Assembly: GCA_964247135.1 (NCBI GenBank)
Contig: CAXTTL010000095.1
Span: 1 to 17,071, forward strand
Length of the DNA: 17,071 bases
Origin: an uncultured Deinococcales bacterium
GTDB lineage: Bacteria > Deinococcota > Deinococci > Deinococcales > JAAFIG01
Direction of reading: 5' to 3'
Both the position numbers and the translations under genes were made by a program. Position 1 is the stretch's first letter; each line of letters starts with the position of its first letter. The notes under the pieces were generated by a model. The model saw only the letters and a list, made by a program, of their open reading frames with translations. It did not search any database and was not told the DNA's origin. Positions 1 to 16,997 of the stretch are shown here, one piece after another.

Positions 1-323
1 AACCCGCCCCTTGGAGCGCCGAGGAGTCTCGAGCGCACGATCAAAAAGTCGTCGGCGAAACCGATCAAGCCCATGCCGAGGCTCATCAGGTACGCTGCCC
101 AGCCTTTGCGGTCGGTGTAGCCCGCCAAACCAATCATCACCAGCCAGACCAGAAAGATCACGATTGAAAATGGGACACCGCCCATTGTGGGCGTACCATC
201 TTTTGATAGGTGCGTGGCGGGACCATCGCGGCGCACGGTTTGCCCCCAACCACGGCTTTTGGCGATGCCGACAAAACTGCCGACCGCAAACCAACTGAGC
301 ACGGTGGCAATCACCACGCTCAT
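1..323 (-). CDS. mraY: Phospho-N-acetylmuramoyl-pentapeptide transferase MraY, 5' part (runs off the window; not in the ORF track)
   Basis: Hand translation from ATG at 323: MSVVIATVLSWFAVGSFVGIAKSRGWGQTVRRDGPATHLSKDGTPTMGG...GLIGFADD. It has the MraY GPxxHxxKxGTPTMGG and GxxDD motifs and an ATGA overlap with the murF stop. Confidence 0.96.
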   Translation of the reverse strand, partial: MSVVIATVLSWFAVGSFVGIAKSRGWGQTVRRDGPATHLSKDGTPTMGGVPFSIVIFLVWLVMIGLAGYTDRKGWAAYLMSLGMGLIGFADDFLIVRSRLLGAPRGG

Positions 324-1633
324 GGCTGTACCTCGCCGTTGAGGGTACGGATCGCATCAACAATCAATTTCATGTTGACCGACAGCGAGCCTTTGACCAG
401 CACCGTATCACCTGGTTTGAGGTGCGTTTCAATCTCGAGCGTGGCGACTTGCGAGTTTGGGTACGACGTTGAGATTGTGCCCGAACCTCGAGCCGCATCG
501 GCAATATCGTCGCCGTACACGCCAACACCGATCACCAGTTTGGCAATTTTCCCCGCTCGGGCGCCAATTTGGGCGTGAAGTTCTGGCGAGGTTTCACCCA
601 GTTCGCGCATGTCTCCCAAGATTGCCACCTTGCGTCCCGTTTGACGCTCGAGCGTGTCGAGGCTGGCGTTGACACTTAATGGGTTGGCGTTGTACGAATC
701 GTCGATCAATTTAAATTGCAGTCCGTGTTCGACGCGCATTCTCGCGCCAGGCACTTCAACGGTTTGGACTCGAGCGATTGCATCGGGCAGATCGAGATGA
801 TACTGACCAGCGATGGCGAGAGCACCCAACGCGGCTTCGGCGACCTTTTGGGACGGGTTGGGAATGGTGACTGGTAAACCTTGAAACGAAAAACGGACGC
901 TGGATTCCTCGAGTTTTAAATCCGTGCCTTGAAAAGTTGCGCCAGCTTCAAAACCGTAACTCGGTACGTCTGGATACAGGTGCGCACAAGAGGTTGAAAC
1001 CAAGCCATTTCGCCCCTCGAGAATCCTGCCTTTTTCAAACGCAATTTGTTCCAAGCTGCCAAAAAACTCGAGGTGCGCCGCGCCGACACTGGTAATCACG
1101 CCCAAATCGGGTGCGGTCAGGTTGACAAGTTCATCCATCTCCCCGATTCGGTCAATGCCAAGCTCGAGCACGTGTTTGGAGTCTCGGTTGACGCTCGAAA
1201 GCAGGTAACAGGCAATGGCGTTCAAGGTGTTGTAATAATTGCTCGGGCAATTGAGCGCCGCCGCCAAGTACGAACGCATGGTGGTTTTGCCAGCCGAACC
1301 GGTCACGCCAATGATCGTTGCGCCGCACTCGAGCCGCCAAGCTTTTGCCCAAGCCCGCAACGCGGCGGTGGCATCCGAAACCCGCACGGCTCGAGGAACA
1401 TCGAGGTCGGTCAGCACAAACGGCGCACCAGCCTCGAGCGCCGACTGAACATAATTATTGCCATGTTCCGCCTCGCCAGCCAACGCCGCGAACGCCGTGA
1501 ATTCATTGACTTTGCGCGAATCCCAAGTGATTGCCGTGGCGGCTCGAGCATCGGCATGAACAACCACGCCAAAAGCCTCGAGCGCTGCAATCCAGTCTCG
1601 AGGCTCCAGTGGGTTGAGTTTTGATTCGATCAT
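320..1633 (-). CDS. murF: UDP-N-acetylmuramoyl-tripeptide--D-Ala-D-Ala ligase MurF
   Basis: GVTGSAGKTT P-loop, ELG, DDSYNANP, LGDMRELG and VLVKGS motifs; lies directly upstream of mraY. Confidence 0.95.
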   Translation of the reverse strand: MIESKLNPLEPRDWIAALEAFGVVVHADARAATAITWDSRKVNEFTAFAALAGEAEHGNNYVQSALEAGAPFVLTDLDVPRAVRVSDATAALRAWAKAWRLECGATIIGVTGSAGKTTMRSYLAAALNCPSNYYNTLNAIACYLLSSVNRDSKHVLELGIDRIGEMDELVNLTAPDLGVITSVGAAHLEFFGSLEQIAFEKGRILEGRNGLVSTSCAHLYPDVPSYGFEAGATFQGTDLKLEESSVRFSFQGLPVTIPNPSQKVAEAALGALAIAGQYHLDLPDAIARVQTVEVPGARMRVEHGLQFKLIDDSYNANPLSVNASLDTLERQTGRKVAILGDMRELGETSPELHAQIGARAGKIAKLVIGVGVYGDDIADAARGSGTISTSYPNSQVATLEIETHLKPGDTVLVKGSLSVNMKLIVDAIRTLNGEVQP

Positions 1634-1670
1634 GCCAGACCTCGGGTGTGACGAAGAATTAATACAGATA

Positions 1671-1697
1671 TGAGTAAGTTGAGTGAGGTGAGTAAAG
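1671..1697. repeat. Three imperfect 9-bp tandem units between ftsI and murF
   Basis: tgagtaagt / tgagtgagg / tgagtaaag at 1671, 1680 and 1689. Confidence 0.55.
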
Positions 1698-1771
1698 AAC
1701 GCATCAGGTCAATGTACCAGATTTAGAGTGACAAGCATTGATGCCAGAAATCAAAAATTGCTGACTCGCAA

Positions 1772-1795
1772 GGGCGCAGCAAGCAGCGCCCCTAC
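1772..1795 (-). repeat. GTAG-type REP (repetitive extragenic palindrome)
   Basis: Minus strand reads GTAG-GGGCGC-TGCTTGCT-GCGCCC, a GTAG tetranucleotide plus GC-rich hairpin, 3 nt after the ftsI stop. Confidence 0.75.
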
Positions 1796-1798
1796 GTT

Positions 1799-3289: not shown

Positions 3290-3708
3290 TGTGTTTCCAC
3301 CTTGACCTTCTGCGCGGGTTTGGGCAAATCCTGGACTGCCGCTAACGGCTCGAGTTGTTTAAAATCGAAATTGCCGCTGCTGTACGGAACCATGTCGTGA
3401 GCCACCGCCCAAGCGCGAACCCGTGCGGGGGACTCGAGGCTGGAAATATCGCGGCGAAGCTGCGCACTTTCGCGCTCGAGTTGGCTGGCTTGGTCTTGCA
3501 AATCACCGAGTTGACGTGCGTGGCTGGCGGTCAAAAACCGCACTCCTGTCAAGGCGATCAGCAATGCCACGTAATAAAACGAGTAACGAATCACCCGTTC
3601 TTTCATCAAGCGCGTTTGAGGCGATTGAAGCTGTTTTGGCGCAGTTTTTGATGAAACTCGAGATTCAGTTTTGACTTCGGGTCGGCTGGTTTCGGCAATT
3701 AAACTCAT
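3280..3708 (-). CDS. ftsL: Cell division protein FtsL-like
   Basis: Single TM segment, heptad coiled coil and LESPARVRAWA...MVP; sits between rsmH and ftsI and overlaps both. Confidence 0.75.
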   Translation of the reverse strand: MSLIAETSRPEVKTESRVSSKTAPKQLQSPQTRLMKERVIRYSFYYVALLIALTGVRFLTASHARQLGDLQDQASQLERESAQLRRDISSLESPARVRAWAVAHDMVPYSSGNFDFKQLEPLAAVQDLPKPAQKVKVETQWR

Positions 3709-4586
3709 ACGATCACCTCGAGCTTCTGGACACTTAATTTTTTTCCGACGCGAAGTTTGGCGCTTCTGGCTCGAGGATTGTCTATGGTTTCCGCTTCACT
3801 TGCTTCGATGGGGCGTTTGGTTAATGCCTCGAAATCGCCGCTGTCACGCAAGAAATGCTTGACAATCCGGTCTTCCAGCGAGTGAAAACTGATGACCGCC
3901 AAACGCCCATCGGGATTTAAAACATTTGACGCCGCCTTCAAACCAGCCTCGAGCGCCCCAAGTTCGTCGTTGACGTAAATTCTTAACGCCTGAAACGTTC
4001 GCCTTGCTGGATGGATTCCGCGAGCATGACCGCCTGGATAGGCGCGTTTGATGATCTCGGCAAGCTGCTTGGTGCTTTCTATTGGGGCTTTGTCACGGGC
4101 TTCGGAAATCCCACGCGCGATGCGCCTCGAGTGGCGTTCTTCGCCGAACTCGTAAATGATTCTGGCTAAATCTTCAAACACCATGTCGTTCACCACCTCA
4201 TAAGCACTTTCGCCAGCCTGGGACATGCGCATGTCGAGTGCGGCATCGGTGTGAAACGAAAAGCCACGGTCTTGGTCGTCGAGCTGAAAACTCGAGACGC
4301 CCAAATCCATGAGAACCCCATCAACTTTGCGACCGTCCAGCAGTTGCTCGAGGTCACGAAAATTGCCTTCGATCACCTCGAGATTGGGCAAATTCGCATT
4401 TCTGGCTCGCTCGAGGGCAAACGGGTCTTGATCCAGACCAATGACGTTCGCGCCGCGCTCGAGCAGCAATCGCGTGTGACCCGCGCCGCCGAGCGTGGCA
4501 TCCAAAATCGTTTTGCCAGGTGCGGGTTGCAAGCCATCCAGAACCTCGAGCGGCAACACTGGCGCGTGTGACAGTTCCACAATCAT
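3705..4586 (-). CDS. rsmH: 16S rRNA m4C1402 methyltransferase RsmH (MraW)
   Basis: HAPVL, DATLGGAGHT, DLGVSSFQLD, RGFSF, LDMRM, FQALRIYVNDEL, ISFHSLEDRIVK and NPRARSAKLR motifs. Start reassigned to ATG 4586, which gives an ATGA overlap with the mraZ stop. Confidence 0.97.
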   Translation of the reverse strand: MIVELSHAPVLPLEVLDGLQPAPGKTILDATLGGAGHTRLLLERGANVIGLDQDPFALERARNANLPNLEVIEGNFRDLEQLLDGRKVDGVLMDLGVSSFQLDDQDRGFSFHTDAALDMRMSQAGESAYEVVNDMVFEDLARIIYEFGEERHSRRIARGISEARDKAPIESTKQLAEIIKRAYPGGHARGIHPARRTFQALRIYVNDELGALEAGLKAASNVLNPDGRLAVISFHSLEDRIVKHFLRDSGDFEALTKRPIEASEAETIDNPRARSAKLRVGKKLSVQKLEVIV

Positions 4587-5023
4587 CCGACCAGCCTCCG
4601 CAGTGGCTCTGGCAGCGTGTCCTGGGCTGGTGGCATGGCTTGAATCTCGGCGATGCTGGCGGTCCAACGGTCGGTGTTCCAAATCTCGAGCCGTTTTGGT
4701 GCGCCCGCGATCATCACCTCAGACTCGAGGTTGGCGAAGGTGCGCAGGGTGTTTGGCACGCTGGCGCGACCTTGGTTGTCAAGGCGCACTTTGCTGGCGC
4801 CCGAGTAGAAAAAACGCACCCAGGCTCGACCAGAATTGTCATTTAACGGCAGGTCGATCAATGCCTCTTCGATTCGTTTCCATTCGGCGCTGGGGAACAC
4901 GTACAAGCAACCTTCCATGCCTCGAGTCAAGACCATGCCATCATCGAGAAAGTCACGAAAGGCAGGTGGAATGACCACCCGTCCTTTGTCATCGATTGTG
5001 TAAGGGTACTCTCCGAACGGCAT
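4583..5023 (-). CDS. mraZ: Division/cell wall cluster transcriptional repressor MraZ
   Basis: Two SpoVT-AbrB repeats (IDDKGRVVIP, LDNQGRASVP), GCLYVFP and RLEIW; first gene of the dcw cluster. Confidence 0.96.
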   Translation of the reverse strand: MPFGEYPYTIDDKGRVVIPPAFRDFLDDGMVLTRGMEGCLYVFPSAEWKRIEEALIDLPLNDNSGRAWVRFFYSGASKVRLDNQGRASVPNTLRTFANLESEVMIAGAPKRLEIWNTDRWTASIAEIQAMPPAQDTLPEPLRRLVG

Positions 5024-5110
5024 TTCCCACTCGCTCCCACCCGACTCATGGTGTTTTCATTCACCAATTTGGGTTTCAAGCCCACACCAAGGGCGTTTTT
5101 GATACGGGAC

Positions 5111-5161
5111 ACTTTAGCACGGTATCCCCACTTTTTACCACCCATCCCCACTTTTTCCCCC
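5111..5161 (-). promoter_or_regulatory. dcw promoter: extended -10 plus MraZ-binding GTGG repeats
   Basis: Minus strand has GTGG at an exact 10-bp period (5151-5148, 5141-5138, 5131-5128, degenerate GGGG at 5161-5158), followed by TGcTAAAGT (5119-5111). This matches the known MraZ direct-repeat operator layout. Confidence 0.85.
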
Positions 5162-5290
5162 AAAATCTGGCAGTAAGAATGTTGCAGCCCCACCAACCGG
5201 CTTGAGGCTGGAGACTTCAAAACCTTTAAAAATACACTTCGTAAATTGAAGTAATAAGGCAATCACGACAATTCGTTCAAACTCGAGGCG

Positions 5291-5767
5291 TCACAAGTCA
5301 AAACGATACGAGATTTCGGTCAGGGCGCTGTGGTTCACCATCTCCACCTTGCGCCCCTCGAGCTTGCCACCCAAGTGCACGTAAAAGCTGCAACTTGGGT
5401 TTCCCTCGAGCACCCACAACACCAAAGACGGCAATTGTTTGGCTTTGGCGGCATCAATCGCGGCATTCCACAAGGCTTGTCCGAGCTTTAAACCTTGAAA
5501 TGATTTCAAAACATAAATCGTGAACAACTCGGCTTCGGTTTCGCGCCATCCCAGACTGCAAAAACCGACCACCGCGCCATCAGATTCAACCACAAACACC
5601 ACCATGCTCGAGCTTGAAAGCGTGCGCTGCCACTGCGCCTCACGCGCCCCGAGTGAAAACGAGTTGATGACCTCCAAGGGCATCAAACCCGAATAGGTCT
5701 CGAGCCAAGATTGCACATGAACCCTGGCGAGGCTGGGAATGTCGGAATGGCGTGCAGAACGAACCAT
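5291..5767 (-). CDS. GNAT family N-acetyltransferase
   Basis: VRSARHSDIPSLARVHVQSWLETYSG, VVGF, ELFTIYVLKSFQGLKLGQAL (motif A) and LWVLEGNPSCSFY. Start ATG 5767 chosen because TGtTAAACT (5781-5773) lies 5 nt upstream. Confidence 0.9.
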   Translation of the reverse strand: MVRSARHSDIPSLARVHVQSWLETYSGLMPLEVINSFSLGAREAQWQRTLSSSSMVVFVVESDGAVVGFCSLGWRETEAELFTIYVLKSFQGLKLGQALWNAAIDAAKAKQLPSLVLWVLEGNPSCSFYVHLGGKLEGRKVEMVNHSALTEISYRFDL

Positions 5768-5861
5768 AACGCAGTTTAACAACAAGCCATAAAAAGCAAT
5801 AAGCCATTTGATTCAGCACCGCCTAAGCGTATCGGCAAATGCGCAACTGACAAAGAAAACC

Positions 5862-5867
5862 TAAACT
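5862..5867 (+). promoter_or_regulatory. Putative -10 box (TAAACT) for the small-protein transcript
   Basis: TAnnnT 6 nt before ATG 5874, the same geometry as other leaderless starts in the window. Confidence 0.55.
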
Positions 5868-6149: not shown

Positions 6150-6227
6150 CCCGACCCACCACTCGCTTTGGCTCGAGTCGATGCGGACTCCTCCCTGCCG
6201 TTCACTCTGGAAGCCGAAGCTTTTTCC

Positions 6228-6257: not shown

Positions 6258-6318
6258 GTGGGTCGAGAATTGCAAAAACAATGTGATTCTCGAGTTTTCC
6301 GAATTGGTTCATTTTAAA

Positions 6319-7212
6319 TTACGGAACTGCGTTGAAACATTCCTGACTTAAACCTTCATTCACCGTTTCAAGTAGTTCATGCGTGAAATCCCTTTGACAA
6401 AGAATATCCTGGCTCGGAGAATTGATACCCACGTCAAGCATAAATTCACAATAATGACCAACAGCACGCCTTTGTGCAGAATTCAAATCAATTCCAAAGA
6501 TCGTCACTGGATTACCGCCCAAAATCCTCAAAACAGTTTCCTCGGCAAGACCAGAATCAAAAGGTTTTCTTCGCAAAGAATTTCGCATAAAAGCTGGAAT
6601 GAGATAACGAAATCCGATTGGGTCAATACCCAACAACACAAAGTAATAACCCGTTTCTCCAAAAAGCTCGTCGGTTAGGTCTTGCCATCGTTCAACATCC
6701 TGAGATCGAGCCTCTAAAATGCGTTGTTCTCTTTCCGCATTGTCCCTGTATGGCAAATCAAGTTCCCAAGCTTCACGCAAACCTATTCCATCGCCTTTTT
6801 CAACTTCAGCAAACGCAGTTTCAATTTCAGCAATCAATTCGGATTTGCGCCGTTCGAGGTCAGGTTCATCCACATCAACACAATCGGTAGGAATCCAACC
6901 CGATTCACCTCGAGCATTCAAGCACCACCAGCCGTTGTTAGAATTCCCAAAACCCTCGAGTTTTTCACCAACTTCTAGCGTCAATTGTCGTGAATTGAAT
7001 TTATGAGCAACAATCGCTTCATTCCCTTCAAACTTCTGAAATATGCGATGGGATGCCCAACAAGTACGTCCATCGGGTAAAGTGCAAAACACATTGCCCA
7101 TCCAATTCCAATTTCTTCCCTCATCAACCTGAACTTGAACCACATCACCAACCGACAAAATGACAGCATTTTTGGATTCTCGAGCGTGGGGTTTTACGGC
7201 GAAGAGTTTCAT
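6319..7212 (-). CDS. Tandem SH3-like domains fused to a DUF6714-like domain
   Basis: N-half has two SH3-type units (LSVGDVVQV...FCTLPDGRTCW and QLTLEVGEKL...GWWCLNARGESGWIP). C-half IAEIETAFAEV..GDGIGLREA...WQDL...DPIGFRYLIPAFM resembles DUF6714 from memory. Confidence 0.65.
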   Translation of the reverse strand: MKLFAVKPHARESKNAVILSVGDVVQVQVDEGRNWNWMGNVFCTLPDGRTCWASHRIFQKFEGNEAIVAHKFNSRQLTLEVGEKLEGFGNSNNGWWCLNARGESGWIPTDCVDVDEPDLERRKSELIAEIETAFAEVEKGDGIGLREAWELDLPYRDNAEREQRILEARSQDVERWQDLTDELFGETGYYFVLLGIDPIGFRYLIPAFMRNSLRRKPFDSGLAEETVLRILGGNPVTIFGIDLNSAQRRAVGHYCEFMLDVGINSPSQDILCQRDFTHELLETVNEGLSQECFNAVP

Positions 7213-7330: not shown

Positions 7331-7336
7331 CAAGTC

Positions 7337-7819
7337 ATGGCAAAAGTAGAATCTTTCAATCTCGATCACACCAAAGTCCGCGCCCCTTACGTGCGCGTGG
7401 CGGGCAGACACCTCACGCCGAGCGGCGACACGATCACCAAATTCGATTTGCGGCTGGCGCAACCCAACCAAGAATTTCTGGGCACTGGCACCATGCACAC
7501 GCTCGAGCATCTGCTGGCGGGAAACTTGCGCGATCATTTGACGGGGATCATTGACATTTCGCCAATGGGTTGCCGCACTGGGTTTTACATGGTCATGGAC
7601 GGCGATCAAAACGTAGAGACGGTGCGGCTGGCACTCGAGAAAACCCTGGCGTTCGTGCGCGATTTTGACCAAGCAATTCCTGGGGTGTCCGAACTCGAGT
7701 GTGGCAATTACCGCGATCACAATTTGCAAAATGCCAAGGACTGGGCAAAAAAAGTGCTTGAGCAAGGCTTGATCGTGCAAGAAACCGTGCGGATTCCGGA
7801 TGGAGTCTCGAGCCAATGA
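7337..7819 (+). CDS. luxS: S-ribosylhomocysteine lyase LuxS (AI-2 synthase)
   Basis: VESFNLDHTKV, FDLRLAQPN, HTLEH, DISPMGCRTGFY and CGNY motifs. Confidence 0.98.
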   Translation: MAKVESFNLDHTKVRAPYVRVAGRHLTPSGDTITKFDLRLAQPNQEFLGTGTMHTLEHLLAGNLRDHLTGIIDISPMGCRTGFYMVMDGDQNVETVRLALEKTLAFVRDFDQAIPGVSELECGNYRDHNLQNAKDWAKKVLEQGLIVQETVRIPDGVSSQ

Positions 7820-8463: not shown

Positions 8464-8468
8464 TTCAC

Positions 8469-8978
8469 ATGACACCTGAACCGACCAACCTCGAGCGTCT
8501 TGATCGGGCGTTGTCGCAACTCGCGGCGACCCTCGAGGTGATCTACTCGCGGCGGGTGCTCGAGGATGTGCTGGGCGATCTCGAGGAGGTCACGGCAGCG
8601 CAACTTCGCACCCTCAAGCTGCTCTCGGGCGAATCGATGGACGGCACGGGTTTGTTGATTGGCGCGATCAGTCAAGGTTTAAGAATCTCTTATCCTGCGG
8701 CGAGCAAAGCCGTGGATCGTCTGGTCGAACGCGATCTGGCGGAACGAAAACGAAGCGACGGCGATGCGCGTCAAACCTTTGTGCGGCTGACCGAACGGGG
8801 TCGTGAGGTGATTGGGAAAGTCAGGCTCGAGCGGCAAGTCAAACTCGAACGGGCATTGCAGCAGATTGGTGATGAACGCACGATTGGCGAATTTACAAAA
8901 CTGCTCGAAGCGTTCACAACTCAATCGGTGCAGGACCCTCAAGATGCGCTGGAAGTCAAACTCGAGACAGGGTTTTAA
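8469..8978 (+). CDS. MarR family transcriptional regulator
   Basis: VTAAQLRTLKLL, wHTH ISQGLRISYPAASKAVDRLVERDL and DARQTFVRLTERG; starts 5 nt after the mtnN stop. Confidence 0.9.
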   Translation: MTPEPTNLERLDRALSQLAATLEVIYSRRVLEDVLGDLEEVTAAQLRTLKLLSGESMDGTGLLIGAISQGLRISYPAASKAVDRLVERDLAERKRSDGDARQTFVRLTERGREVIGKVRLERQVKLERALQQIGDERTIGEFTKLLEAFTTQSVQDPQDALEVKLETGF

Positions 8979-10276
8979 AACGTTTGAATCAACCCGTAAG
9001 TCTCGAGCATGGTTTGAAGCGCAAGGCTCGAGCTGGCGGACTTTGCACTGACCAGGGTCGCCACGCATTTGTCTTTTAAGGGCGCGTATGGTTTGTTCTT
9101 GTCCAAGCGAAACGAACCCGCACCCGTCAGGCTCGCGCCAGCGATGCCTGTGATTTCAAAATTGCAAACAATCTGCGAAAACGCCCCGCTCAGCTCGAGA
9201 ATCGCACGGTTTTCCTTGCTCGAGTAAAAGAAAAACGCATCGAGTTTTGCATTGCCATTTTTGGCGGTGCCGCTGGGCACATTCGCCAGAAGTTTGGTCA
9301 AATTGACATCGTAAATTTGCGCCCCAATTTGCACTTTCCAGGTTTGACCCACTTCAATGTTCGGTGGCCAAGAAAGCTTGATGTTGCTCAAAGCTGGCGG
9401 GGTTGTGCCAGCTTTGATGATGCCAGGACCGCCGGTCAATTCGGCGGTGCAAATCTGATTGAGTAGAGCTGTCTGGGAATTCTTGTCTTTTTGAAAGACC
9501 GCCTCGCCCGTTAAAGTCTGACCGTTCAAACCGCCCTCACCAAACACGCAACCCCAAACGCCGACGCCATCGGTCAACTGCAACACGGCATTGCGGGTAT
9601 CCGCAACCCAGTAAAAATAGGCGTCCAAACTCGAGGTGCCATTGCTGGCTTTGCCGTAAGGATCGCCGTCCTTGTCTTTGGCATTTAACGTTAGGGTCCA
9701 GTCACCAACGGTCGCAATGCTGACTTGCCAGGTCTGCCCGACCTCGAGATTTGGGGGCCACAAGGCATTGACTTTTGGGGTTGGATCACTTGAGTTTTGG
9801 GCGGTTAAATCTGGCTTGGCTCGCCCCGTGCCGTCGTCGAGCGCCGCCGTACAAAACCCCGAGTACGGTTTAAAAGCGCTGCCCGAGTCTTTGACGAAAG
9901 TTGCACCGGTCATGATGTACTCGGTCACACCGTAAGACCCAAATTGGCACAATTGCGAGATTTTACCGTCGGTCAGGAGCAAATTGGCAAAATCTTTTTG
10001 CTTGTCATAATAAAAAAAGACGTTTAAGACCCTCGGATTTCGTAAATTTTTGGCGTTGCCGATTGGATCGCCGTCCGCGTCTTTGCCGTCCAGCGTGACC
10101 ATCCAATCGCCAAGCTTTTCGATGCTGACATACCAGGTTTGTCCAACCACGATTTTTGGGGGCCAACCGATAGCACCCGTGACCGTTGGTGCGGCGGTGA
10201 CGGGTTGTGTCTGGGCGAAAGAAATTCCAGTACCGAACAGACAAAGCAGCAAAAAGACCAGTTTAATCGGTTTCAT
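8975..10276 (-). CDS. Secreted hypothetical protein with three ~130-aa tandem repeat domains
   Basis: Signal peptide ending SFA-Q; three units starting WPPx[IL]xVGQTWxVxI, each with two conserved Cys. Confidence 0.85.
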   Translation of the reverse strand: MKPIKLVFLLLCLFGTGISFAQTQPVTAAPTVTGAIGWPPKIVVGQTWYVSIEKLGDWMVTLDGKDADGDPIGNAKNLRNPRVLNVFFYYDKQKDFANLLLTDGKISQLCQFGSYGVTEYIMTGATFVKDSGSAFKPYSGFCTAALDDGTGRAKPDLTAQNSSDPTPKVNALWPPNLEVGQTWQVSIATVGDWTLTLNAKDKDGDPYGKASNGTSSLDAYFYWVADTRNAVLQLTDGVGVWGCVFGEGGLNGQTLTGEAVFQKDKNSQTALLNQICTAELTGGPGIIKAGTTPPALSNIKLSWPPNIEVGQTWKVQIGAQIYDVNLTKLLANVPSGTAKNGNAKLDAFFFYSSKENRAILELSGAFSQIVCNFEITGIAGASLTGAGSFRLDKNKPYAPLKDKCVATLVSAKSASSSLALQTMLETYGLIQTF

Positions 10277-10429
10277 TGGTCATCAGTCTGTCATAAATTC
10301 ATGAGCGGATTTTTCAGATTGGATTGACCCAATCACCGTTTGATCGTCTGCACCTCAGCTTTAAAACTCGAGTGTGGCGGATTGATTTACTGATGCCCAG
10401 AATTGACCTTGTTTGACATCCAGAGCCAG

Positions 10430-10435
10430 TATAAT
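10430..10435 (+). promoter_or_regulatory. -10 box TATAAT, leaderless start at GTG 10442
   Basis: Perfect TATAAT 6 nt before an in-frame GTG. Confidence 0.7.
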
Positions 10436-10441
10436 GACCCC

Positions 10442-12364
10442 GTGTCGGAAGATCCTAAGCAATCAATGGTTGAGCTTTACGAGTATAAAGTCGCAGACTT
10501 GATCGCTGGGCGCGAACCGCTCGGCGGGAAGCAATCGGTCAAAACCTTGAGGGACACCATTGCAAAGCTGGCGTTGACTGGTCAACAACTCAGGCGTTAC
10601 CGCGAGACGGATCGAAAACTCCGAGAGAAAAGCGCGGCGCCAAAGTCGTTGACCCAAACCGTTGAGGGCGAAAAACTCGATGTCAACGTGGGCTTGAATC
10701 TTGACCTTGATTCTTCAATGCCCGCCGTTGTGCCAGTCGTGAGCGACAAACAGATGGCGATGGCGAACCTCGAGTTGACCGACGGCGAAACTTTCGTGTT
10801 TAAAGCGCTCAGCCATGCGGCTTGGTGTGTGGATTTTCGTGAGGAGGTACAGTCTCAGAACAAGCGCTTTAGGCTCGAGCCAAACCGCCCGAGCTTGCGT
10901 TTGATTTACGCGACGCTGCACAACCTCGAGCAATATTCGGAGTTGCCTGGTTTTAGCCAGGATTTGAACCTTGCCAAGTTTAAAGTCATTTCAGCCGTAC
11001 CAAACAGCGACGATCCGCTGATCAGTTTGGGCAACAGCGATGTGGTCAATGAACTCTTGGAAGGTCTTGCCAACCACATCGCCAGTTTTTCGCAGCTTTA
11101 CCCCAAATTGACCATGCCAAGCAGCGAAACCCTCTCGTACCTGCGTCGTTTTGCGGTGGCGGTGGCGAACGACAGCACCGCCGGCGAACCGCCACCGGTG
11201 GTCAGTCCCAGCCCGCGCGAAATTCAAAACGCGCTCGAGGATGTGCGCCGCGAGAACCTCAACCCCGAAGCCAAACGCACCATGCTCGAGCGCCTGCAAA
11301 AACAACTCGAGCACGCGCTGAGTCAAGAAAAAACCTTGCTCGGTCGTTACGAGTCTGATCGCCGCGCCCTGCAAGAATCGGTTGAAACCATTTTCGGTTA
11401 TTTGATCGACCAGGTGCCAGAGCGTTTGGGTGGTCGTGCCAAAGACCGCAATCCAGTTCAAAAGGCGTTAAACGCCCAAAACGAGGATTTAAGGCTCGAG
11501 ACCCTCAATCCAAACGCCACCGAGGTTGCGGTGCGTTTGCAACGAACCGGCGGCACGAGCTTGGCGGGCATCGAGGTGCATTGGCACACCCAGCCCGAAG
11601 GTTGGGCGATTGAGGTCGGCGGCGCGGAATACCCCTTGCAATCGGACATGAGCATTCCGCTCGAGGGACAAGAGATTCGCATTTATACCAAACAGGCGCT
11701 CGGCGCGATTTATGCCCTGATCAAAATTCGTGATCGTGGCGGGGCGAGCACCCTCTGGGAGGCGCTGAAACTTGCCCGTACCGTGGCGGTCATGCTCGAC
11801 CCCAATGAGCAATACCTCAATCTTCGGCTGGCACGGGCGGCGACCAGTTGGATCAAAGACCGTCGGGTTGACCTCGAGCAGGTCAGTCCCGAAGTTGCCG
11901 CCAATTGGGCAAACGCGCCCGAGGATCGTCTGCTCGATTTTGCCCGCAAAGGCGCGAGCCGTTTGCAGGACATGTTCAAACGCAGCCCAGAGGCGGTGCT
12001 CGAGCGGGCGTTTTTTGCCAGCGCCGAATCGCTGTCCGAACCTGGTGGAACCAACAGCGCCAACATTGTGACCAAAGCCTTCCGAGAGCTGTTGAAAATG
12101 CCCGACCATGAGCCGATTGAAGGCTTGGACATCAAAAAACCCGACGAGGCATTGCTGGTCTTGTACCGTGGCGAACCGATCACCATTCGCGTGATGCAAC
12201 GCGCCCTGACCATTCGCACCGACAACTTGGGCAAAGTTTATGTGCTGCTGCCTGGCGGCGGTGGACGAACCCTGGAGCAAATTTTGGTCCATCACATGCC
12301 TGGCGGCGCGATCATCATGGCTCGGGAGGGTTTGCGGATTGCCTTGAGTTATATTGCCGTATGA
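10442..12364 (+). CDS. Large hypothetical protein (~640 aa) with a central coiled coil, probably Deinococcota-conserved
   Basis: Long ORF with host-like composition. The N-terminus (MVELYEYKVADLIAGREPLGG) resembles Thermus/Meiothermus hypothetical proteins from memory. Start reassigned from 10403. Confidence 0.85.
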   Translation: MSEDPKQSMVELYEYKVADLIAGREPLGGKQSVKTLRDTIAKLALTGQQLRRYRETDRKLREKSAAPKSLTQTVEGEKLDVNVGLNLDLDSSMPAVVPVVSDKQMAMANLELTDGETFVFKALSHAAWCVDFREEVQSQNKRFRLEPNRPSLRLIYATLHNLEQYSELPGFSQDLNLAKFKVISAVPNSDDPLISLGNSDVVNELLEGLANHIASFSQLYPKLTMPSSETLSYLRRFAVAVANDSTAGEPPPVVSPSPREIQNALEDVRRENLNPEAKRTMLERLQKQLEHALSQEKTLLGRYESDRRALQESVETIFGYLIDQVPERLGGRAKDRNPVQKALNAQNEDLRLETLNPNATEVAVRLQRTGGTSLAGIEVHWHTQPEGWAIEVGGAEYPLQSDMSIPLEGQEIRIYTKQALGAIYALIKIRDRGGASTLWEALKLARTVAVMLDPNEQYLNLRLARAATSWIKDRRVDLEQVSPEVAANWANAPEDRLLDFARKGASRLQDMFKRSPEAVLERAFFASAESLSEPGGTNSANIVTKAFRELLKMPDHEPIEGLDIKKPDEALLVLYRGEPITIRVMQRALTIRTDNLGKVYVLLPGGGGRTLEQILVHHMPGGAIIMAREGLRIALSYIAV

Positions 12365-12711: not shown

Positions 12712-12755
12712 AATAGCTCGAGCAAACATCTCATGTTGGTGTTTATCATGCGGTC

Positions 12756-13406
12756 ATGACTTCCAAAACTCGAGTTTTGCTTGCCTGTTGGTTGGCGTTG
12801 GTATTCGGCTTTGCCTTCGCCCAACAAGCGCAACCAGCGACCCAAAGCAAAAAAGACCCAATCCGAATCTATGGTTTGCAGGAGGCAAAACTGCGTTTTC
12901 AACTCGGGCGCAACTCGAGGGTGCTGGACTTAAAGGCTGACCTGAACGGTTGTTGGACCGCGATTTACGACCCTGAAAATTCCAAGTTGTCATCCGAAAA
13001 AATCGTGCTTTTCCCTCGGGTGCTCGATGAGGTAACAAAGTCTGGGTTTTGGTACGTGCTCTCGCAAATCAATTTGACCAGCGGTTGCAACGTCCAAGGT
13101 TACTGCGGTGCGGGCAGCGTGACGCAAGTGTTGTGGTTTAAATTTGATCGCCAATTAAAAGCCATCAAACGTCAATCGGTAATGGTCAGCGATTGCGCCA
13201 CCAACATCGAACCCCTAAAATTTTCGGGACGCGGCGGATTTGACGACATTCAAACAACACTCGAGATGCGTGGCGGTATGCTCGAGGTCAGTTATGAGCG
13301 AGCCGATTTCGGCACCAAGATCAATACGGTGTCTAAACTACGTTATGACCGACGCCGTCCCGAAAACGGTTTGGTGATCTCGAGCAAAACCTTTGCCCTC
13401 AAATAA
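12756..13406 (+). CDS. Secreted hypothetical protein
   Basis: Signal peptide ending AFA-Q; four Cys in the mature part including CNVQGYCGAG; TATCAT (12744-12749) 6 nt before the ATG suggests its own leaderless promoter. Confidence 0.8.
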   Translation: MTSKTRVLLACWLALVFGFAFAQQAQPATQSKKDPIRIYGLQEAKLRFQLGRNSRVLDLKADLNGCWTAIYDPENSKLSSEKIVLFPRVLDEVTKSGFWYVLSQINLTSGCNVQGYCGAGSVTQVLWFKFDRQLKAIKRQSVMVSDCATNIEPLKFSGRGGFDDIQTTLEMRGGMLEVSYERADFGTKINTVSKLRYDRRRPENGLVISSKTFALK

Positions 13407-13483
13407 GCATTCCGAACTTTCCCACCGCTCTTGTGATGGAAAGGAACGCCCGAAGATCAGTATGGCTGGTATCGTGTTGCTTG

Positions 13484-14566
13484 ATGATTCAAGGTCGCCT
13501 AAAAGATTACCCGATTGCCGATTTGCTTGGTCTGATCTCAAACGGACAAAAGTCTGGCGTGCTGACCGTGAAACTCGACGAACGCGAAGCCAGAATCCAT
13601 TTTGAAATGGGCAAGGTCTTGTACGCTCGGGTCGAGGACGGCGCGAACCTCGGCGAGTACCTGGTGCGATTTGAATTGATGAACCCCGAAGAGATTCAAA
13701 ATTTGATCGCCCGTCAGCACAAAGAAAACCCGCACACGCCGCTGGGCATGATGGCGGTGCGCTCGGGCAACATCAACGAGGAAGACCTCAAGCGGGCGCT
13801 CGAGGCGCAGTGCCTGGACGCCACCACCGAAGTGTTGATTTGGAACGACAATCAACGCTCGAGGTTTGATTTTAAAGAGCGCGGTCCAGACGCGTCTCAA
13901 GTTCCAACCCAGCATATTTTTGACCCGATGGCGTTGCTCTTGGAAGCGACCCGCAGGCTCGACGAATGGCGGCGCGGACAGGTCAAACCCTACGATGTTT
14001 TTGAGGTCGCACTCGAGGCGAGCAATCCGCCGCCGACGCTGTCCGTCGGCGAGTGGGAGTTGCTGCATTTGGTCGATGGTCAACGCTCCGCCGCCAGTAT
14101 CGCCGCCGAACTCGACATTCCCGAGGGCGAAACCTACCGCCGCTTGTTCTTGCTGCTCGAGCGAAATTTGTTGCGCCGTGCCGATGTGCGCCCCGAAGAC
14201 CCCTGGGTTTTGATCGTGACCGAGAGCCACACCACGCGGCGTTTGAACACCATGACCCTGACCCGCGAACGCTACCGCGTGATGCACGCCGACAGCCTCG
14301 AGAAAGCCAAAGAACTGCTCGAGGAGCGCCGTCCGAACACGATCTTGCTCGACTGGGCAAATCCGATTGAAGCCGCCAAACAATTCCGTGCAGTCAAAGG
14401 CAAGAACCTGACACCGATCATCGCCATTGTCAAAGAAGAACCACGCCAGGGTGGCTTTTTCAACCGCAACAACAACACAGTGTCCAACTTGCGGTTTTTG
14501 TTAAAACCCTATTCGGAAATGCAGCTTCTGGCGTCCGTCTTGGCGGTCACGGGACGCTCGGTTTAA
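13484..14566 (+). CDS. DUF4388 (PatA_N-like) protein with a C-terminal atypical receiver domain
   Basis: MIQGRLKDYPIADLLGLISNGQKSGVL...IHFEMGKVLYA, LLLEATRRLDEW, a wHTH-like segment, then WVLIVTES...ILLD...PIIAI...LLKPY. Start reassigned using TGgTATCGT at 13467-13475. Confidence 0.85.
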   Translation: MIQGRLKDYPIADLLGLISNGQKSGVLTVKLDEREARIHFEMGKVLYARVEDGANLGEYLVRFELMNPEEIQNLIARQHKENPHTPLGMMAVRSGNINEEDLKRALEAQCLDATTEVLIWNDNQRSRFDFKERGPDASQVPTQHIFDPMALLLEATRRLDEWRRGQVKPYDVFEVALEASNPPPTLSVGEWELLHLVDGQRSAASIAAELDIPEGETYRRLFLLLERNLLRRADVRPEDPWVLIVTESHTTRRLNTMTLTRERYRVMHADSLEKAKELLEERRPNTILLDWANPIEAAKQFRAVKGKNLTPIIAIVKEEPRQGGFFNRNNNTVSNLRFLLKPYSEMQLLASVLAVTGRSV

Positions 14567-14585
14567 GGGCTGCTCGATTCAAGAA

Positions 14586-15629
14586 CTATGGCGCTCGAGC
14601 CTCAATCGTGCCGGCGTCGGTTTGCAAATGAACTTTGGCTGGGTGTTGCCCAGTTTGGGTAGCCGTGAATTGATGCTCGGTCAATTCGCCAGTTTGGTTC
14701 ACCACAAATCCATTCAACTGAAGACTCAGTTCGCCAATGCTGGTCTGTCCCTCGAGTTCGATCCCGTCGGAGGCGCTAAAATCCTCGAGCGTCAGCGTTC
14801 CCAGGTTGGTGCCGAGCGTATTGCTGGAATCAGGCTCGAGCAGAATATTTTTGGCGCCGACATCACCCGTATCGGTCTTTAAATTCAGGCTGCCCCGAAT
14901 GTTGTTGGTTTGGATCGAACCCATGTTTGTCTCGAGCACGACCGCGCCTTCAACATCAGTCAAGTTCAAATCTCCGGTGTCCGCCTGCATGTTGACCTGT
15001 GATTTGCCCAGACGCTGCGCGGTGATCGTGCCGATATCGGTTTTGAGTTCAATACTGCCTTGAGCGTCTTTCAGGTCGATGTTCCCAGTGTCAGTTTGCA
15101 AATGAACCGTGGCTGTTCCCAAGTTTCGAGCCTCAATATCACCAACGCTGGTGGTCACGTCCAACGAACGCAACAAGCCGGCAACGGTCACATCCCCAAC
15201 ATCGGTTTGAAGCTGAACCTCGAGGTCTTGGGGAATATTGAGTGTGATGTCGATGCCGCAACCATTGCAAATTTTGGTTTTGATTTTGCCAGTCAACCAC
15301 AGCGTGTCGTTGGCTGTCTCGAGTTTGAATGCCAGGTTCTCGGGTTTGTGAAATCGTTTGGTGATGGTCAGGCTTGGGGTTTTGCCACCGCTGACGACAC
15401 GAATTTTGCCAACCTCGTTCTTTACATTTAACTTGTGCCAATCGCCAGGCTCGAGGGTTTTGGTTTCAACCGTCTCTTTGATCGGACCCGATTGTAAAAA
15501 CACTTTTGCGCCCACCTGACCCAGCGCAAGCGCCGTCGCTTTGCTCGCGTGCAAAATTCCGTTACACGCCGAGACTGCCACCAACGCGCCGCACGCCAAG
15601 ATCAGAAACTCGATTTTGAATCCCCTCAT
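14586..15629 (-). CDS. DUF4097 beta-strand repeat (putative adhesin-like) protein, probable lipoprotein
   Basis: Many [LV]xTDxGD[IVL] repeats at ~19-20 aa spacing; hydrophobic N-terminus ending in the lipobox VSAC. Confidence 0.88.
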   Translation of the reverse strand: MRGFKIEFLILACGALVAVSACNGILHASKATALALGQVGAKVFLQSGPIKETVETKTLEPGDWHKLNVKNEVGKIRVVSGGKTPSLTITKRFHKPENLAFKLETANDTLWLTGKIKTKICNGCGIDITLNIPQDLEVQLQTDVGDVTVAGLLRSLDVTTSVGDIEARNLGTATVHLQTDTGNIDLKDAQGSIELKTDIGTITAQRLGKSQVNMQADTGDLNLTDVEGAVVLETNMGSIQTNNIRGSLNLKTDTGDVGAKNILLEPDSSNTLGTNLGTLTLEDFSASDGIELEGQTSIGELSLQLNGFVVNQTGELTEHQFTATQTGQHPAKVHLQTDAGTIEARAP

Positions 15630-15682
15630 GTTTTGTTCCCCTTCCGTGTCACAATCTAAAATGATGATGCGCCCATATTTCC

Positions 15683-15702
15683 AAGATTCATCGAAGATTC
15701 AT
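15683..15702. promoter_or_regulatory. Direct repeat AAGATTCAT x2 at 11-bp period in the divergent DUF4097/guaD intergenic region
   Basis: Identical 9-mers at 15683-15691 and 15694-15702. Confidence 0.5.
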
Positions 15703-15716
15703 TCAAGGCTCGAGTC

Positions 15717-16997
15717 ATGAAACTCTACCGAGCCAGCCTCGCCCACACGCCACGCAACCCGTTTTTGCATTCCGACGCGCTCGAGACGTTTGTGGATGGC
15801 GGTTTGCTGGTTGATGGGGACAAAATTCTCGAGCTTGGTGAATTCTCGAGTCTGTATTCAAAATACCCAACAGCCAAAGTGGTTGATTTCACTGGCAGTT
15901 TTATGGTGCCTGGCTTGGTCGATTGTCACGTGCATTTTCCCCAAGTGAATGTCATCGGCACGATGGGGGTTCAGTTGCTCGAATGGCTCGAGACGCGCAC
16001 GCTGCCCGAAGAAGAAAAATTGTCGGACTCGGGATATGCGCGTGAGGTGGCAATCGATTTCTTGGGGCATCTTAAACGAAATGGCACGACCACCGCCTTG
16101 GTGTTTGGCAGCCATTTTAAAAATGCGATGCACGAATTTTTTGAAACCGCCCAAGATTCCAAACTTCGCATCACCAGCGGCATGGTCTTTTCGGACCGCG
16201 AATTGCGCCCGAAGCTGCATCAAAGCCCGCAACAGGCATTTGCCGGCGGCGCCGAATTAATCATGCGTTGGCACAACAACGGGCGCTTGCGCTACGCCGT
16301 GATGCCACGTTTTAGTTTGTCATGCTCGGACAAGATGCTCGAGGTGTGCAGTGCGCTTTTATCGGCGCAACCTGGAATATTGTTTCATTCGCACATCAAC
16401 GAAAACCCGCTCGAGATACAAACCGTCAAACGTCTTGCCAACGCACCCGACTACCTCGAGAGTTACGAGCGCCACAACCTGGTGGGTGAACGCAGCGTCT
16501 TTGCGCACAGCGTCCACCCGACAGCATCCGAACTTTCCCGATTGGCAAAAGCCGGCTCGAGCGTGGCGCATTGCGCCTCGAGCAACGCCTTCATCGGCAG
16601 CGGTTTGTTCCCCATGCGCTCCCACCTCGAGGCTGGGGTGCACGTGGCGCTCGGCTCGGACGTGGGTGGCGGCACGGGATTCTCGCTTCTCAAAGAGGGA
16701 CTTGAGGCGTACCAGATGCAAATGCTGCAAGCTGAGGGCGTCAAGCTTTCACCCGCGCATCTCCTGTATTTGGCAACCAAAGCTGGCGCGAAAGCCTTGC
16801 ACCTCGAGGATCAAATTGGGGATTTTACACCAGGAAAGCAAGCCGATTTTGTGGTCTTGAAAGCACCCAAGGGCAGCACCCTCGAGCGAACATTGCAAGG
16901 CTCGCCGTCAATGGCTGCCAGTTTGGGGGCGTTGTTTACCTTGGCGCGGGAGGAGAGCGTTAAAAACGTTTTTGTGGCTGGAGAAAAATTGGTTTGA
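15717..16997 (+). CDS. guaD: Guanine deaminase
   Basis: PGLVDCHVHFPQ, LLEWL..TLPEE, GTTTALVF, PRFSLSC, HINEN, AHSVH, SNAFIGSG and GSDVGGG motifs. Confidence 0.95.
   Translation: MKLYRASLAHTPRNPFLHSDALETFVDGGLLVDGDKILELGEFSSLYSKYPTAKVVDFTGSFMVPGLVDCHVHFPQVNVIGTMGVQLLEWLETRTLPEEEKLSDSGYAREVAIDFLGHLKRNGTTTALVFGSHFKNAMHEFFETAQDSKLRITSGMVFSDRELRPKLHQSPQQAFAGGAELIMRWHNNGRLRYAVMPRFSLSCSDKMLEVCSALLSAQPGILFHSHINENPLEIQTVKRLANAPDYLESYERHNLVGERSVFAHSVHPTASELSRLAKAGSSVAHCASSNAFIGSGLFPMRSHLEAGVHVALGSDVGGGTGFSLLKEGLEAYQMQMLQAEGVKLSPAHLLYLATKAGAKALHLEDQIGDFTPGKQADFVVLKAPKGSTLERTLQGSPSMAASLGALFTLAREESVKNVFVAGEKLV

Follow-up and report, generated by a model that had tools for sequence, protein, structure and literature searches.

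In an uncultured Deinococcales family, CTCGAG is best read as a highly iterated palindrome

A stretch of 17,071 nucleotides from an uncultured Deinococcales bacterium (contig CAXTTL010000095.1 of GenBank assembly GCA_964247135.1), termed here as the window, was found to be crowded with the hexamer CTCGAG, and the same crowding was observed throughout the source genome and in all 19 genomes of its family. This hexamer is best read as a highly iterated palindrome (HIP) of the family, a free-standing 6-bp word, whose abundance is best explained by a weak, pervasive and sequence-specific directional force on all DNA that has long been resident in these cells. The initial annotation, which was made from the letters of the window, had likened the word to HIP1 of cyanobacteria and had proposed that a genome-wide process creates or keeps it. 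Both claims were borne out, the former by the size of the excess, the frames occupied, the presence in non-coding DNA and the conservation of the sites, and the latter by an excess in all frames and in uncalled DNA together with the same conservation.

In the window, which corresponds to contig C95 of the source genome (G000), CTCGAG occurs 7.1 times per kb, whereas the mean over 200 dinucleotide-preserving shuffles was 3.29 copies (standard deviation 1.71, largest 9) and none of them reached the exact count of 121, so that the earlier estimate by hand of about 120 copies against about 5 expected was sound. Gene calls based on open reading frames (ORFs) assign 11 of the sites to 1,518 uncalled bases and the others to genes, where 76 are read as CTC-GAG, 11 as nCT-CGA-Gnn and 23 as nnC-TCG-AGn; the 110 genic sites stand against a mean of 18.4 and a maximum of 29 in 200 synonymous-codon shuffles of the same genes. 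The three sites that had been put forward as examples of the three frames all check out (Table 1), and five of the seven sites that had been listed as non-coding do lie between ORFs, while the other two, at 6172 and 7279, fall within unannotated ORFs of one strand.

The excess is not limited to the contig of the window. Within the 5,091,702 bases of G000 (386 contigs, the longest of 115,556 bases; GC content 0.527; 84% complete), CTCGAG is the commonest of all hexamers, with 33,925 copies, that is, 6.7 per kb or about one per 150 bases. The count exceeds the expectation from base composition 24.7-fold, in agreement with the 25-fold enrichment estimated from the window, and that of a first-order Markov model 35-fold; the ratio of 1.24 under a maximal-order Markov model is a poor null, as the 5-mers CTCGA and TCGAG exist almost solely within CTCGAG. 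Each of the 386 contigs carries at least 2.56 sites per kb (median 6.81), where about 0.27 per kb would be expected.

Genes were called across the genome by a heuristic of our own that combines ORFs with a codon score, which yielded 4,630 genes covering 85% of the DNA. The density was similar in genes (28,374 sites, 6.53 per kb) and in uncalled DNA (5,541 sites, 7.42 per kb). By frame, 17,754 genic sites were counted as CTC-GAG, 4,267 as nCT-CGA-Gnn and 6,402 as nnC-TCG-AGn, while five synonymous-codon shuffles within genes returned 3,956-4,098 copies in total and about 3,150, 320 and 570 in the respective frames, which places all three frames 6- to 13-fold above this control; five codon-order shuffles gave 1,637-1,705 copies in total. 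A dicodon-preserving control is uninformative for the CTC-GAG frame, since the hexamer is fixed there by construction. Even against a first-order Markov model of codons, in which five of the six bases are already accounted for, there were 4,267 against 2,339 sites in the second frame and 6,402 against 3,414 in the third (1.8- to 1.9-fold), so that the excess survives in the two frames where a dicodon-level control, as had been asked for by the initial annotation, is meaningful. Its argument that codon bias alone is insufficient was also confirmed by the density of the uncalled DNA and by the rise of every frame above the synonymous shuffles. These controls have shown that the excess sits at the level of DNA and not of codons.

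The word has left a marked imprint on codon and amino acid choice. Before GAG, CTC accounts for 0.92 of the leucine codons, as compared with 0.09-0.35 before other codons, and away from CTCGAG only 0.156 of leucine codons are CTC and 0.328 of glutamate codons are GAG. Likewise, a codon of the form nCT precedes CGA in 33% of cases, as against about 1% for four other arginine codons and 9% for CGG. Among the dipeptides of the proteome, the strongest over-representation is that of Leu-Glu (23,053 copies vs 9,757 expected), and 17,754 of its copies (77%) are encoded by CTCGAG, while Glu-Leu lies at expectation with 9,886 copies and Ser-Ser is also raised, to 1.62 times expectation.

Outside the six letters, little information was detected. 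Genome-wide, G at -1 and C at +1 are found in 39% of sites and A at -3 in 37%, and these preferences are alike in coding and uncalled DNA (36-39% for G at -1, 36-44% for A at -3). No flanking base exceeds 0.44, a palindromic extension is absent at 79% of sites, and the 8-mer GCTCGAGC, with 4,225 copies, is no more frequent than independent flanks predict. The nearly uninformative flanks imply that the word is free-standing and not the core of a longer repeat; a dispersed repeat of the repetitive extragenic palindrome (REP) or miniature inverted-repeat transposable element (MITE) type was rejected, as neither conserved flanks nor hairpin arms surround CTCGAG. An assembly artefact is very unlikely, because 18 other assemblies of the family carry the same excess. 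One sequencing run matched 5% of the sampled words, and 119 of its 140 contigs on the window were less than 95% alike; its contigs come from relatives and not from the source strain, and the run is thus silent on raw-read support and methylation.

The sites are spread almost at random, with a mean gap of 148 bases and a coefficient of variation of 0.96. Gaps shorter than about 20 bases are under-represented, gaps of exactly 6, which would create GAGCTC, do not occur, and a slight excess of gaps of 50-200 bases is accompanied by a deficit above 400 bases. Only 30 of 4,899 one-kb windows are free of sites. Among the 40 longest site-free stretches, 24 have a GC content of 0.45 or lower, against 0.527 for the genome, and one overlaps a restriction-modification locus with an MvaI/BcnI-family nuclease gene on contig C189; the low-GC stretches fit recently acquired DNA into which the word has not yet been written. 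A scan for phage-type contigs, in which three sites had to lie within about 75 bases, listed mostly high-GC matches with GAGCTC as common as CTCGAG, and four mid-GC loci among the matches listed (L223, L231, L253 and L263) showed no similarity to G000.

Conservation of the sites was examined in five genomes of the same genus, which align to the window at about 86% identity. Depending on the genome, 66-81 of 86-102 window sites were intact (0.69-0.79), as compared with 0.41-0.45 for control hexamers, and the fraction was the same in the three frames (242/313, 29/37 and 81/104 comparisons, or 0.77-0.78) and well above that of same-frame controls (0.42). Third-codon positions were 0.84-0.89 identical inside the sites, whichever of the six letters they hold, vs 0.696 outside; the base adjoining a site was 0.80 identical and bases further off about 0.68, with no longer gradient. 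The six letters and one flank are therefore under similar, moderate constraint, and existing sites were shown to decay at about half the background synonymous rate.

Over longer distances, the positions turn over. In murF, ftsI, ftsL and rsmH, comparisons with three further genera of the family found the position of a site in common in 21 of 94 cases. With eight Deinococcus loci, none of 137 comparisons revealed a shared window site; these loci carry a different amino acid at 109 of the 137 aligned positions, and eight further Deinococcota share a site in 13 of 211. Typically, a conserved leucine is followed by a variable residue that has become glutamate in the source family. At six Leu-Glu sites of rsmH, Deinococcus shows Leu or Met and then another residue, and position 330 of RsmH reads LE in G000 and MD, MA, MQ or MT in the eight Deinococcus loci. 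This ortholog alignment, which the initial annotation had proposed, revealed that most sites sit where amino acids vary, and it shows that new sites keep being written at tolerant positions, typically by a change from Leu-X to Leu-Glu.

The single-letter neighbours of the word are not depleted; those that differ by a transition are the most frequent (1.2-1.7 times expectation) and also head the alternative alleles in aligned relatives, as would be expected of a halo of sites in decay. For each single neighbour state, there are about 16-50 sites.

The distribution of the trait was surveyed over 364 genomes of Deinococcota, in which CTCGAG was counted together with its mirror word GAGCTC, which is composed of the same two codons in reversed order. 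The placement of the window in this phylum, as given in the initial annotation, was supported by its RsmH, which is 92% identical to that of the Deinococcales metagenome-assembled genome (MAG) at L001 and 63-70% identical to those of other Deinococcales MAGs and Deinococcus. At the locus level, five MAGs (L001, L002, L004, L005 and L030; GC content 0.46-0.53) hold 5-7.7 sites per kb, and eight Deinococcus loci hold 0-2 sites per about 6.9 kb each. At the genome level, all 19 members of the source family (f1, five genera) are hyper-enriched, with 12,028-35,442 copies of CTCGAG per genome (4.3-6.8 per kb), while GAGCTC is reduced to 0-25 copies in 16 of them and counts 114, 161 and 568 in the remaining genomes. 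Hyper-enrichment also extends to a few genera that are filed with Deinococcus: genus g23 includes G156 (16,253 CTCGAG in 1.9 Mb, 2 GAGCTC) and G157 (24,536 in 3.5 Mb, 30 GAGCTC), yet also G158, which is near chance (683 in 2.3 Mb, 384 GAGCTC). G042 of genus g19 holds 13,562 CTCGAG in 3.8 Mb and 1,197 GAGCTC. Deinococcus itself is poor in the word, with 26-1,372 copies per genome in the 111 genomes of the Deinococcus-like genus g7, where GAGCTC is mostly low as well. Meiothermus-like and Calidithermus-like genera and several genera of family f2 contain CTCGAG at 2-3.5 per kb and GAGCTC at a several-fold lower density, and the Thermus-like genus g9 has about 0.9 per kb of each. The trait is thus graded over the phylum, extreme in the source family and variable within one genus. 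None of the statements made here depends on G327, a genome flagged as unpublished. In the non-enriched G158 (5 contigs, 95% complete), the five families searched yielded almost no DNA methylases, and its chance-level count of the word is reminiscent of reduced symbiotic cyanobacteria, from which HIP1 has been lost according to the available part of Elhai's account (PMC4390886).

A link to DNA methyltransferases, which the initial annotation had raised by analogy with HIP1, was not supported in the source lineage, where no XhoI enzyme, Vsr, close orthologue of the phylum's solitary CTCGAG methylase or shared methylase orthogroup from five Pfam families was found. The XhoI-family endonuclease (PF04555) is absent from all 19 family genomes. 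Such a nuclease adjoins a methylase in three other Deinococcota genomes, in one of them broken, and the XhoI-linked methylase from one of the three (G021) has no close homologue in the family. Vsr (PF03852) gave no match in G000, which is 84% complete. Five Pfam methylase families were searched in the closed one-contig family member G011 and in G157, G156, G042 and G158, and no methylase orthogroup from these families is common to the enriched genomes, G011 included. The latter has no PF01555 methylase and a single C5 methylase that is not orthologous to any other; none of the C5 methylases of the test genomes is more than 38% identical to another, and no methylases turned up in G156 (58% complete). 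In G000, the two C5 methylases adjoin NgoPII-type and Eco29kI-type nucleases. A screen of the 4,630 called proteins for the motif [DNS]PP[YFW] returned 37 carriers, of which 31 were compared with Pfam and six were already characterised; no further DNA methylase emerged, only enzymes of the PrmC and MTS types that methylate protein or RNA, and a pair of DUF559 proteins. Also rejected were a solitary PF01555 methylase of G000 (C36:20010-21059), which has orthologues only in G002, G007 and G157 and, in G019, a copy interrupted by a TGA stop, and the HsdM-like methylases of G011, which lack a TaqI-like character and any orthologue in G000.

Good conservation among G000, G011 and G157 was seen for a single methylase, the D12 enzyme on contig C320, which is 83% identical in G011 and 75% in G157. 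Phylum-wide, its orthologues were found in seven of the 19 family genomes, G157 and seven Deinococcus genomes (69-93% identical across these) as well as in the Meiothermus-like G207 (61%). As those seven Deinococcus are the poorest in GAGCTC (10-75 copies) and also poor in CTCGAG, the enzyme tracks the scarcity of GAGCTC and not the excess of CTCGAG.

Methylation of CTCGAG is documented in cultured members of the phylum. The tables available from Blow et al. 2016 (PMC4752239) report CTCG(m6A)G modification at 94.6% of sites in Marinithermus hydrothermalis, 94.1% in Meiothermus (now Calidithermus) chliarophilus and 99.5% in Meiothermus ruber; no nuclease is listed there beside these three methylases, and the rows for M. 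silvanus list no CTCG(m6A)G motif. The Calidithermus gene was located at L312; it encodes 553 amino acids, belongs to the Eco57I family and lies near 818 kb, a position in keeping with locus tag 0814. In a phylum-wide search that scored the three best candidates per genome, and that a very divergent copy could therefore escape, orthologues with 41-79% identity appeared in its own genus, in seven Meiothermus-like genomes, in one f4 genome and in several f2 genera; the orthologue of G031 adjoins the broken XhoI nuclease, which supports the assigned CTCGAG specificity. Under the same scoring, no orthologue was detected in 18 of the 19 family genomes, the nineteenth (G007) having a full-length homologue with 30% identity and a TaqI-like domain make-up, and the enzyme is absent from G000, G011, G156, G157 and G042. 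Moreover, in the Meiothermus-like genus g13, the density of CTCGAG is independent of the gene, being for example 3.1 and 3.5 per kb in G193 and G201, which do not have it, vs 2.4 in G191, which does.

Among known systems, HIP1 (GCGATCGC) offers the closest parallel. According to the accessible sections of two HIP1 papers (PMC4390886, PMC5861425), it is likewise a short GC-rich palindrome with a tens-fold excess in coding and non-coding DNA, its sites are conserved above control words and shape the choice of codons and amino acids, and it is lineage-wide and lost in some reduced genomes, the last point coming from PMC4390886. Differences are also evident. HIP1 is an octamer of cyanobacteria, while CTCGAG is a hexamer of Deinococcota in which the core hexamer itself is enriched; HIPs reach about 0.5-2.5 per kb in the part of Elhai's work that could be consulted (PMC4390886), as compared with about 6.7 per kb; and, unlike HIP1, CTCGAG has no cognate methylase among those found and is avoided by sister lineages. 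Three of the features by which HIPs are recognised are shown by CTCGAG, since it is a short palindrome whose genome-wide excess over composition passes the level of at least about 15-fold, it occurs in all frames and in non-coding DNA without a longer repeat, and its sites are conserved above controls in the sense of Xu et al. 2018 (0.77-0.78 vs 0.42); what sets it apart is that it does not belong to a cyanobacterial lineage with GCGATCGC or a derivative. Xu et al. 2018 also list for HIPs a periodic distribution at 10-90 kb, whereas the spacing analysis of CTCGAG covered short ranges, in an assembly of 386 contigs. The alternate HIP of Calothrix PCC 7103, GGCGCC, is also a hexameric palindrome that replaces HIP1 in one lineage, and it was the most over-represented 6-mer among 97 cyanobacterial genomes in the portion of Elhai 2015 at hand (PMC4390886). 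As described there, GGCGCC is sporadic, in single genomes, and accompanied by a matching GrCGyC methylase, whereas CTCGAG characterises a whole family of at least five genera.

Other known systems share single traits with the word. Restriction targets are normally avoided in host genomes. The XhoI/PaeR7I systems recognise the very hexamer that is enriched here, but a 25-fold enriched site with no cognate endonuclease found does not behave as a type II target; neither does it resemble a Dcm/Vsr site, in view of the absence of Vsr and of any depletion of the T-for-C neighbours CTTGAG and TTCGAG. Known uptake sequences have 9-12 bases, are not palindromic and occur about once per kb, and their receptor is known in Neisseria. 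The uptake signal sequences (USS) of Pasteurellaceae and the DNA uptake sequences (DUS) of Neisseriaceae likewise combine a genome-wide excess with tolerant protein positions and a lower frequency in foreign DNA, and in the available text of PMC1939737 their persistence is ascribed to a weak bias in transmission and not to a function of each site; the same combination of excess, tolerant positions and rarity in foreign DNA is displayed by CTCGAG. The core competence genes do not separate CTCGAG-enriched from non-enriched genomes. The solitary CTCG(m6A)G methylases of M. ruber, C. chliarophilus and M. hydrothermalis concern the same hexamer in the same phylum and, in the portion of PMC4752239 consulted, come without a restriction partner; lineages of the Meiothermus, Calidithermus and Marinithermus type show a milder excess of CTCGAG over the mirror word.

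The list of mechanisms in the initial annotation (repair, recombination or uptake, nucleoid binding) was too broad to be wrong, and the present data single out none of them. The mechanism tentatively preferred here is a conversion-type molecular drive, in which strands or incoming DNA bearing CTCGAG would be favoured in uptake, recombination or mismatch correction. Some protein would read the hexamer together with one flanking base, (G)CTCGAG(C), and each site would thereby gain a small transmission advantage. As sites outnumber their neighbours 16- to 50-fold, a scaled strength of roughly 2 to 4 per site may be estimated, and a force of about this size would reduce the fixation of site-destroying changes by half or better, in line with the observed halving. 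Mutation, drift and the force would then balance at a density of about one copy in 150 bases. No single site would have to be functional in itself, and the drive would operate independently of the CTCGAG methylase known from the phylum. Such a drive is ranked first because the positions turn over freely while the density stays constant, and because the sites lie at tolerant positions, foreign DNA is without the word and the force per site is weak. Together, these features correspond to the pattern described for uptake sequences, and recent HIP1 papers point the same way, to judge from the available parts of a 2024 bioRxiv preprint on Synechococcus PCC 7002 and of PMC13756078. Although it is the most likely concrete mechanism, molecular drive is an inference to which somewhat less than even confidence is attached. 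The broader proposition of a methylase-independent HIP, read by an uptake or recombination factor or by a nucleoid protein, present at one copy per 150 bases and switched on or off between relatives, appears possible, with confidence likewise short of even.

Several points weigh against this account. No reader protein was identified in this analysis, and the bias in uptake, recombination or repair is only inferred for CTCGAG. ComEC and DprA are present in every genome tested, the non-enriched G158 included, and as they occur in enriched and non-enriched genomes alike they are uninformative either way. A 6-bp word offers little specificity, and known uptake sequences are about eight times sparser than CTCGAG in these genomes. 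Every figure for coding or non-coding DNA rests on heuristic gene calls, and the uncalled DNA includes missed genes; in this DNA, the conservation is weak, with 16 of 29 comparisons intact vs 0.455 for controls. The six aligned genomes form a near-star tree (pairwise identity 0.855-0.881), and of 106 informative window columns 37 have the site in all six genomes, 25 have lost it in one, 8 have it only in one and 36 are unassignable, so that within the genus single losses outnumber single gains; ongoing gain is shown by the comparisons between genera. Furthermore, the conservation of the sites fits position-independent selection for function equally well, and the same pattern in HIP1 is read as selection in the accessible text of Xu et al. 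(PMC5861425).

Among the competing explanations, the one centred on methylation supposes that a solitary methyltransferase marks CTCGAG and that a methylation-dependent process (strand choice in mismatch repair, recombination of methylated DNA or replication control) creates or selects the sites, an idea put forward for HIPs by Elhai. In its favour, cultured members of the phylum do carry an active solitary CTCG(m6A)G methylase, as documented in the available part of PMC4752239, the methylase-bearing Meiothermus and Calidithermus lineages show the milder excess that Thermus does not, every alternate HIP of cyanobacteria is paired with a matching methylase in the available sections of PMC4390886, and the examined genomes hold HsdM-like, MmeI-like and methylase-helicase enzymes whose specificity is not readable from sequence. 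The explanation is nevertheless considered unlikely, as orthologues of the L312 enzyme occupy parts of four other families and the source family offers only the one distant homologue among 19 genomes, g13 genomes without the gene are as dense in CTCGAG as those with it, G011 has no PF01555 methylase and a single, non-orthologous C5 methylase, the best-conserved methylase follows the scarcity of GAGCTC, and the solitary PF01555 enzyme is confined to four genomes and the interrupted copy. In addition, Elhai's model needs a G-m5C step, and CTCGAG contains no GC, its flanking G and C being only a weak preference. Alternatively, CTCGAG may serve as the binding site of an abundant DNA-binding protein (a nucleoid organiser, condensin loader or replication or segregation factor), the high and even density being selected. 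Conservation above background in every frame, spread over six bases and one flank, would suit such sites, as would the slight excess of 50-200-base spacings with the deficits below 20 and above 400, and HIP1 has been argued to serve nucleoid structure in the part of PMC5861425 consulted; G158, at about chance level although G156 and G157 of its genus are enriched, fits a weakly selected trait that has been lost. Against this stand a spacing near Poisson (variance 7.42 vs mean 6.65 per kb), the few positions shared with other genera and the failure to find a candidate binding protein, so that selected binding sites, too, are judged to be rather improbable.

Repair of the very-short-patch type, by which a Vsr-like nuclease would correct T:G mismatches towards CTCGAG, has been largely refuted and is accorded very little credence. 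In E. coli, Dcm/Vsr raises CCWGG and lowers CTWGG, and G000 has four matches to DUF559 (PF04480), presumably a small nuclease domain with a Vsr-like fold. Besides the lack of Vsr itself, however, the T-bearing neighbours are not depleted, CTTGAG and TTCGAG being the commonest decay products at 1.17 and 1.74 times expectation, and DUF559 is equally common in word-poor Deinococcus (80 of 111 genomes), with no match in three enriched genomes, G042, G010 and G015. The notion that the word is a mere by-product, arising from preferred codons or dipeptides, from a larger dispersed repeat or from contamination by linkers or during assembly, draws on the fact that 63% of the genic sites are CTC-GAG and that high-GC relatives such as Thermus favour both codons. 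It is refuted by the controls and retains next to no probability: uncalled DNA is as dense as genes, the two other frames lie 11-13 times above synonymous shuffles, CTC and GAG are modest in share away from the word, the mirror word with the same codons is missing from G000, the flanks are nearly uninformative, and 19 separate assemblies agree. Four origins of the excess are excluded by the data: a bias in codon use, a longer repeat, restriction of the XhoI type and repair of the Vsr type.

Table 1. Sites of CTCGAG in the window and restriction or methylase systems of the source genome, with their locations
Feature	Location	Strand	Remark
All CTCGAG sites	28..16886	.	121 exact matches; 110 genic, 11 outside
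CTC-GAG example, Leu-Glu in MarR-like gene 8469-8978	8490..8495	+	commonest class
nCT-CGA-Gnn example, Ala-Arg-Ala, MurF position 85, murF 320-1633 (-)	1543..1548	-	phase 1
nnC-TCG-AGn example, near end of ORF 7337-7819	7807..7812	+	sequence count and gene calls
rsmH site, gene position 324-329 from start at 4682	4353..4358	-	among six rsmH Leu-Glu sites
Intergenic site between ORFs 4927-5262 and 5291-5785	5282..5287	.	gene calls
Intergenic site	6289..6294	.	gene calls
Intergenic site between divergent genes 8975-10276 (-) and 10403-12364 (+)	10367..10372	.	gene calls
Intergenic site	12717..12722	.	gene calls
Intergenic site directly upstream of guanine deaminase gene 15717-16997	15709..15714	.	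gene calls
NgoPII-type nuclease and C5 methylase	contig C14		matches GGCC at 0.016 of expectation
Eco29kI-type nuclease and C5 methylase	contig C178		matches CCGCGG, 11 copies
SacI-like nuclease and D12 adenine methylase	C320:1061-2985		matches GAGCTC, 0 copies
MvaI/BcnI-type pair	contig C189		no word matched
NotI-like pair	contig C207		no word matched
Type I system	contig C169		no word matched
Two MmeI-like enzymes	contigs C21, C192		no word matched
Methylase-helicase fusion	contig C112		no word matched

Apart from the enriched word, most palindromic hexamers of G000 are nearly erased, and the window itself has, for example, no GAGCTC or GGCC-rich words. GAGCTC is joined by GGGCCC (1 copy), CGGCCG (3), AGGCCT (4), CGTACG (5) and GGATCC (7), and CAGCTG (15) is scarce together with CCGCGG, although 1,100-1,700 copies of each listed hexamer would be expected; CGATCG has 47 copies. 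About 35 of the 64 palindromic hexamers fall below 0.2 of expectation. Several of the near-absent palindromes match restriction systems resident in G000, which encodes many of them, and no system in Table 1 goes along with the excess of CTCGAG. The SacI-like/D12 system is unusually long-lived or often exchanged, and it tracks the near-total loss of its likely target.

Further elements of the window were also recorded. A hairpin-forming repeat of about 30 bases (GGGCGC...GCGCCC, then CTAC) lies at 1766-1799 between murF and ftsI, and dozens of copies with 97-100% identity are found on other contigs of G000 and in all five genomes of the same genus. A second dispersed repeat of 65-80 bases occupies the contig end (16992-17071); copies with 84-97% identity occur on many contigs, several of them likewise at contig ends, and this repeat probably caused the assembly break at the end of the window. 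The gene at 13433-14566 encodes a protein of 377 amino acids that carries a response-regulator receiver domain at its C-terminus and matches, over a short length, the MshE-type cyclic-di-GMP-binding motif (28.6 bits, under the cut-off of 38 bits). Four ORFs, at 6319-7212, 8975-10276, 10403-12364 and 12756-13406 (297, 433, 653 and 216 amino acids), have no NCBIfam match at E<=0.001, and the density of CTCGAG in them is normal.

To our knowledge, HIP1 has stood unexplained for about thirty years. Highly iterated palindromes are described only from cyanobacteria in the HIP literature cited here, and a full-text literature search, with sparse coverage of subscription journals, found no published description of a CTCGAG excess in Deinococcota. 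The present case would be a second one, from another phylum, with a different word, several times the density, a clear effect on the proteome and no cognate methylase detected. It is useful for its sharp on/off contrasts between close relatives and for its cultured, milder relatives (Meiothermus and Calidithermus), and the question of what force writes a short palindrome across a genome becomes testable by phylogenetic profiling and experiment. Meanwhile, CTCGAG biases codon-usage, dipeptide and k-mer statistics and thereby affects binning, the detection of horizontal transfer and gene prediction in MAGs, and XhoI would cut the unmodified DNA of these genomes into fragments of about 150 bp. 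If the reading as a methylase-independent HIP is true, about 13,000 dipeptides would have been rewritten to Leu-Glu in this organism, and the family would possess a second, independent and denser HIP system, with natural contrasts in G156 and G157 against G158 and in the family as a whole against Deinococcus.

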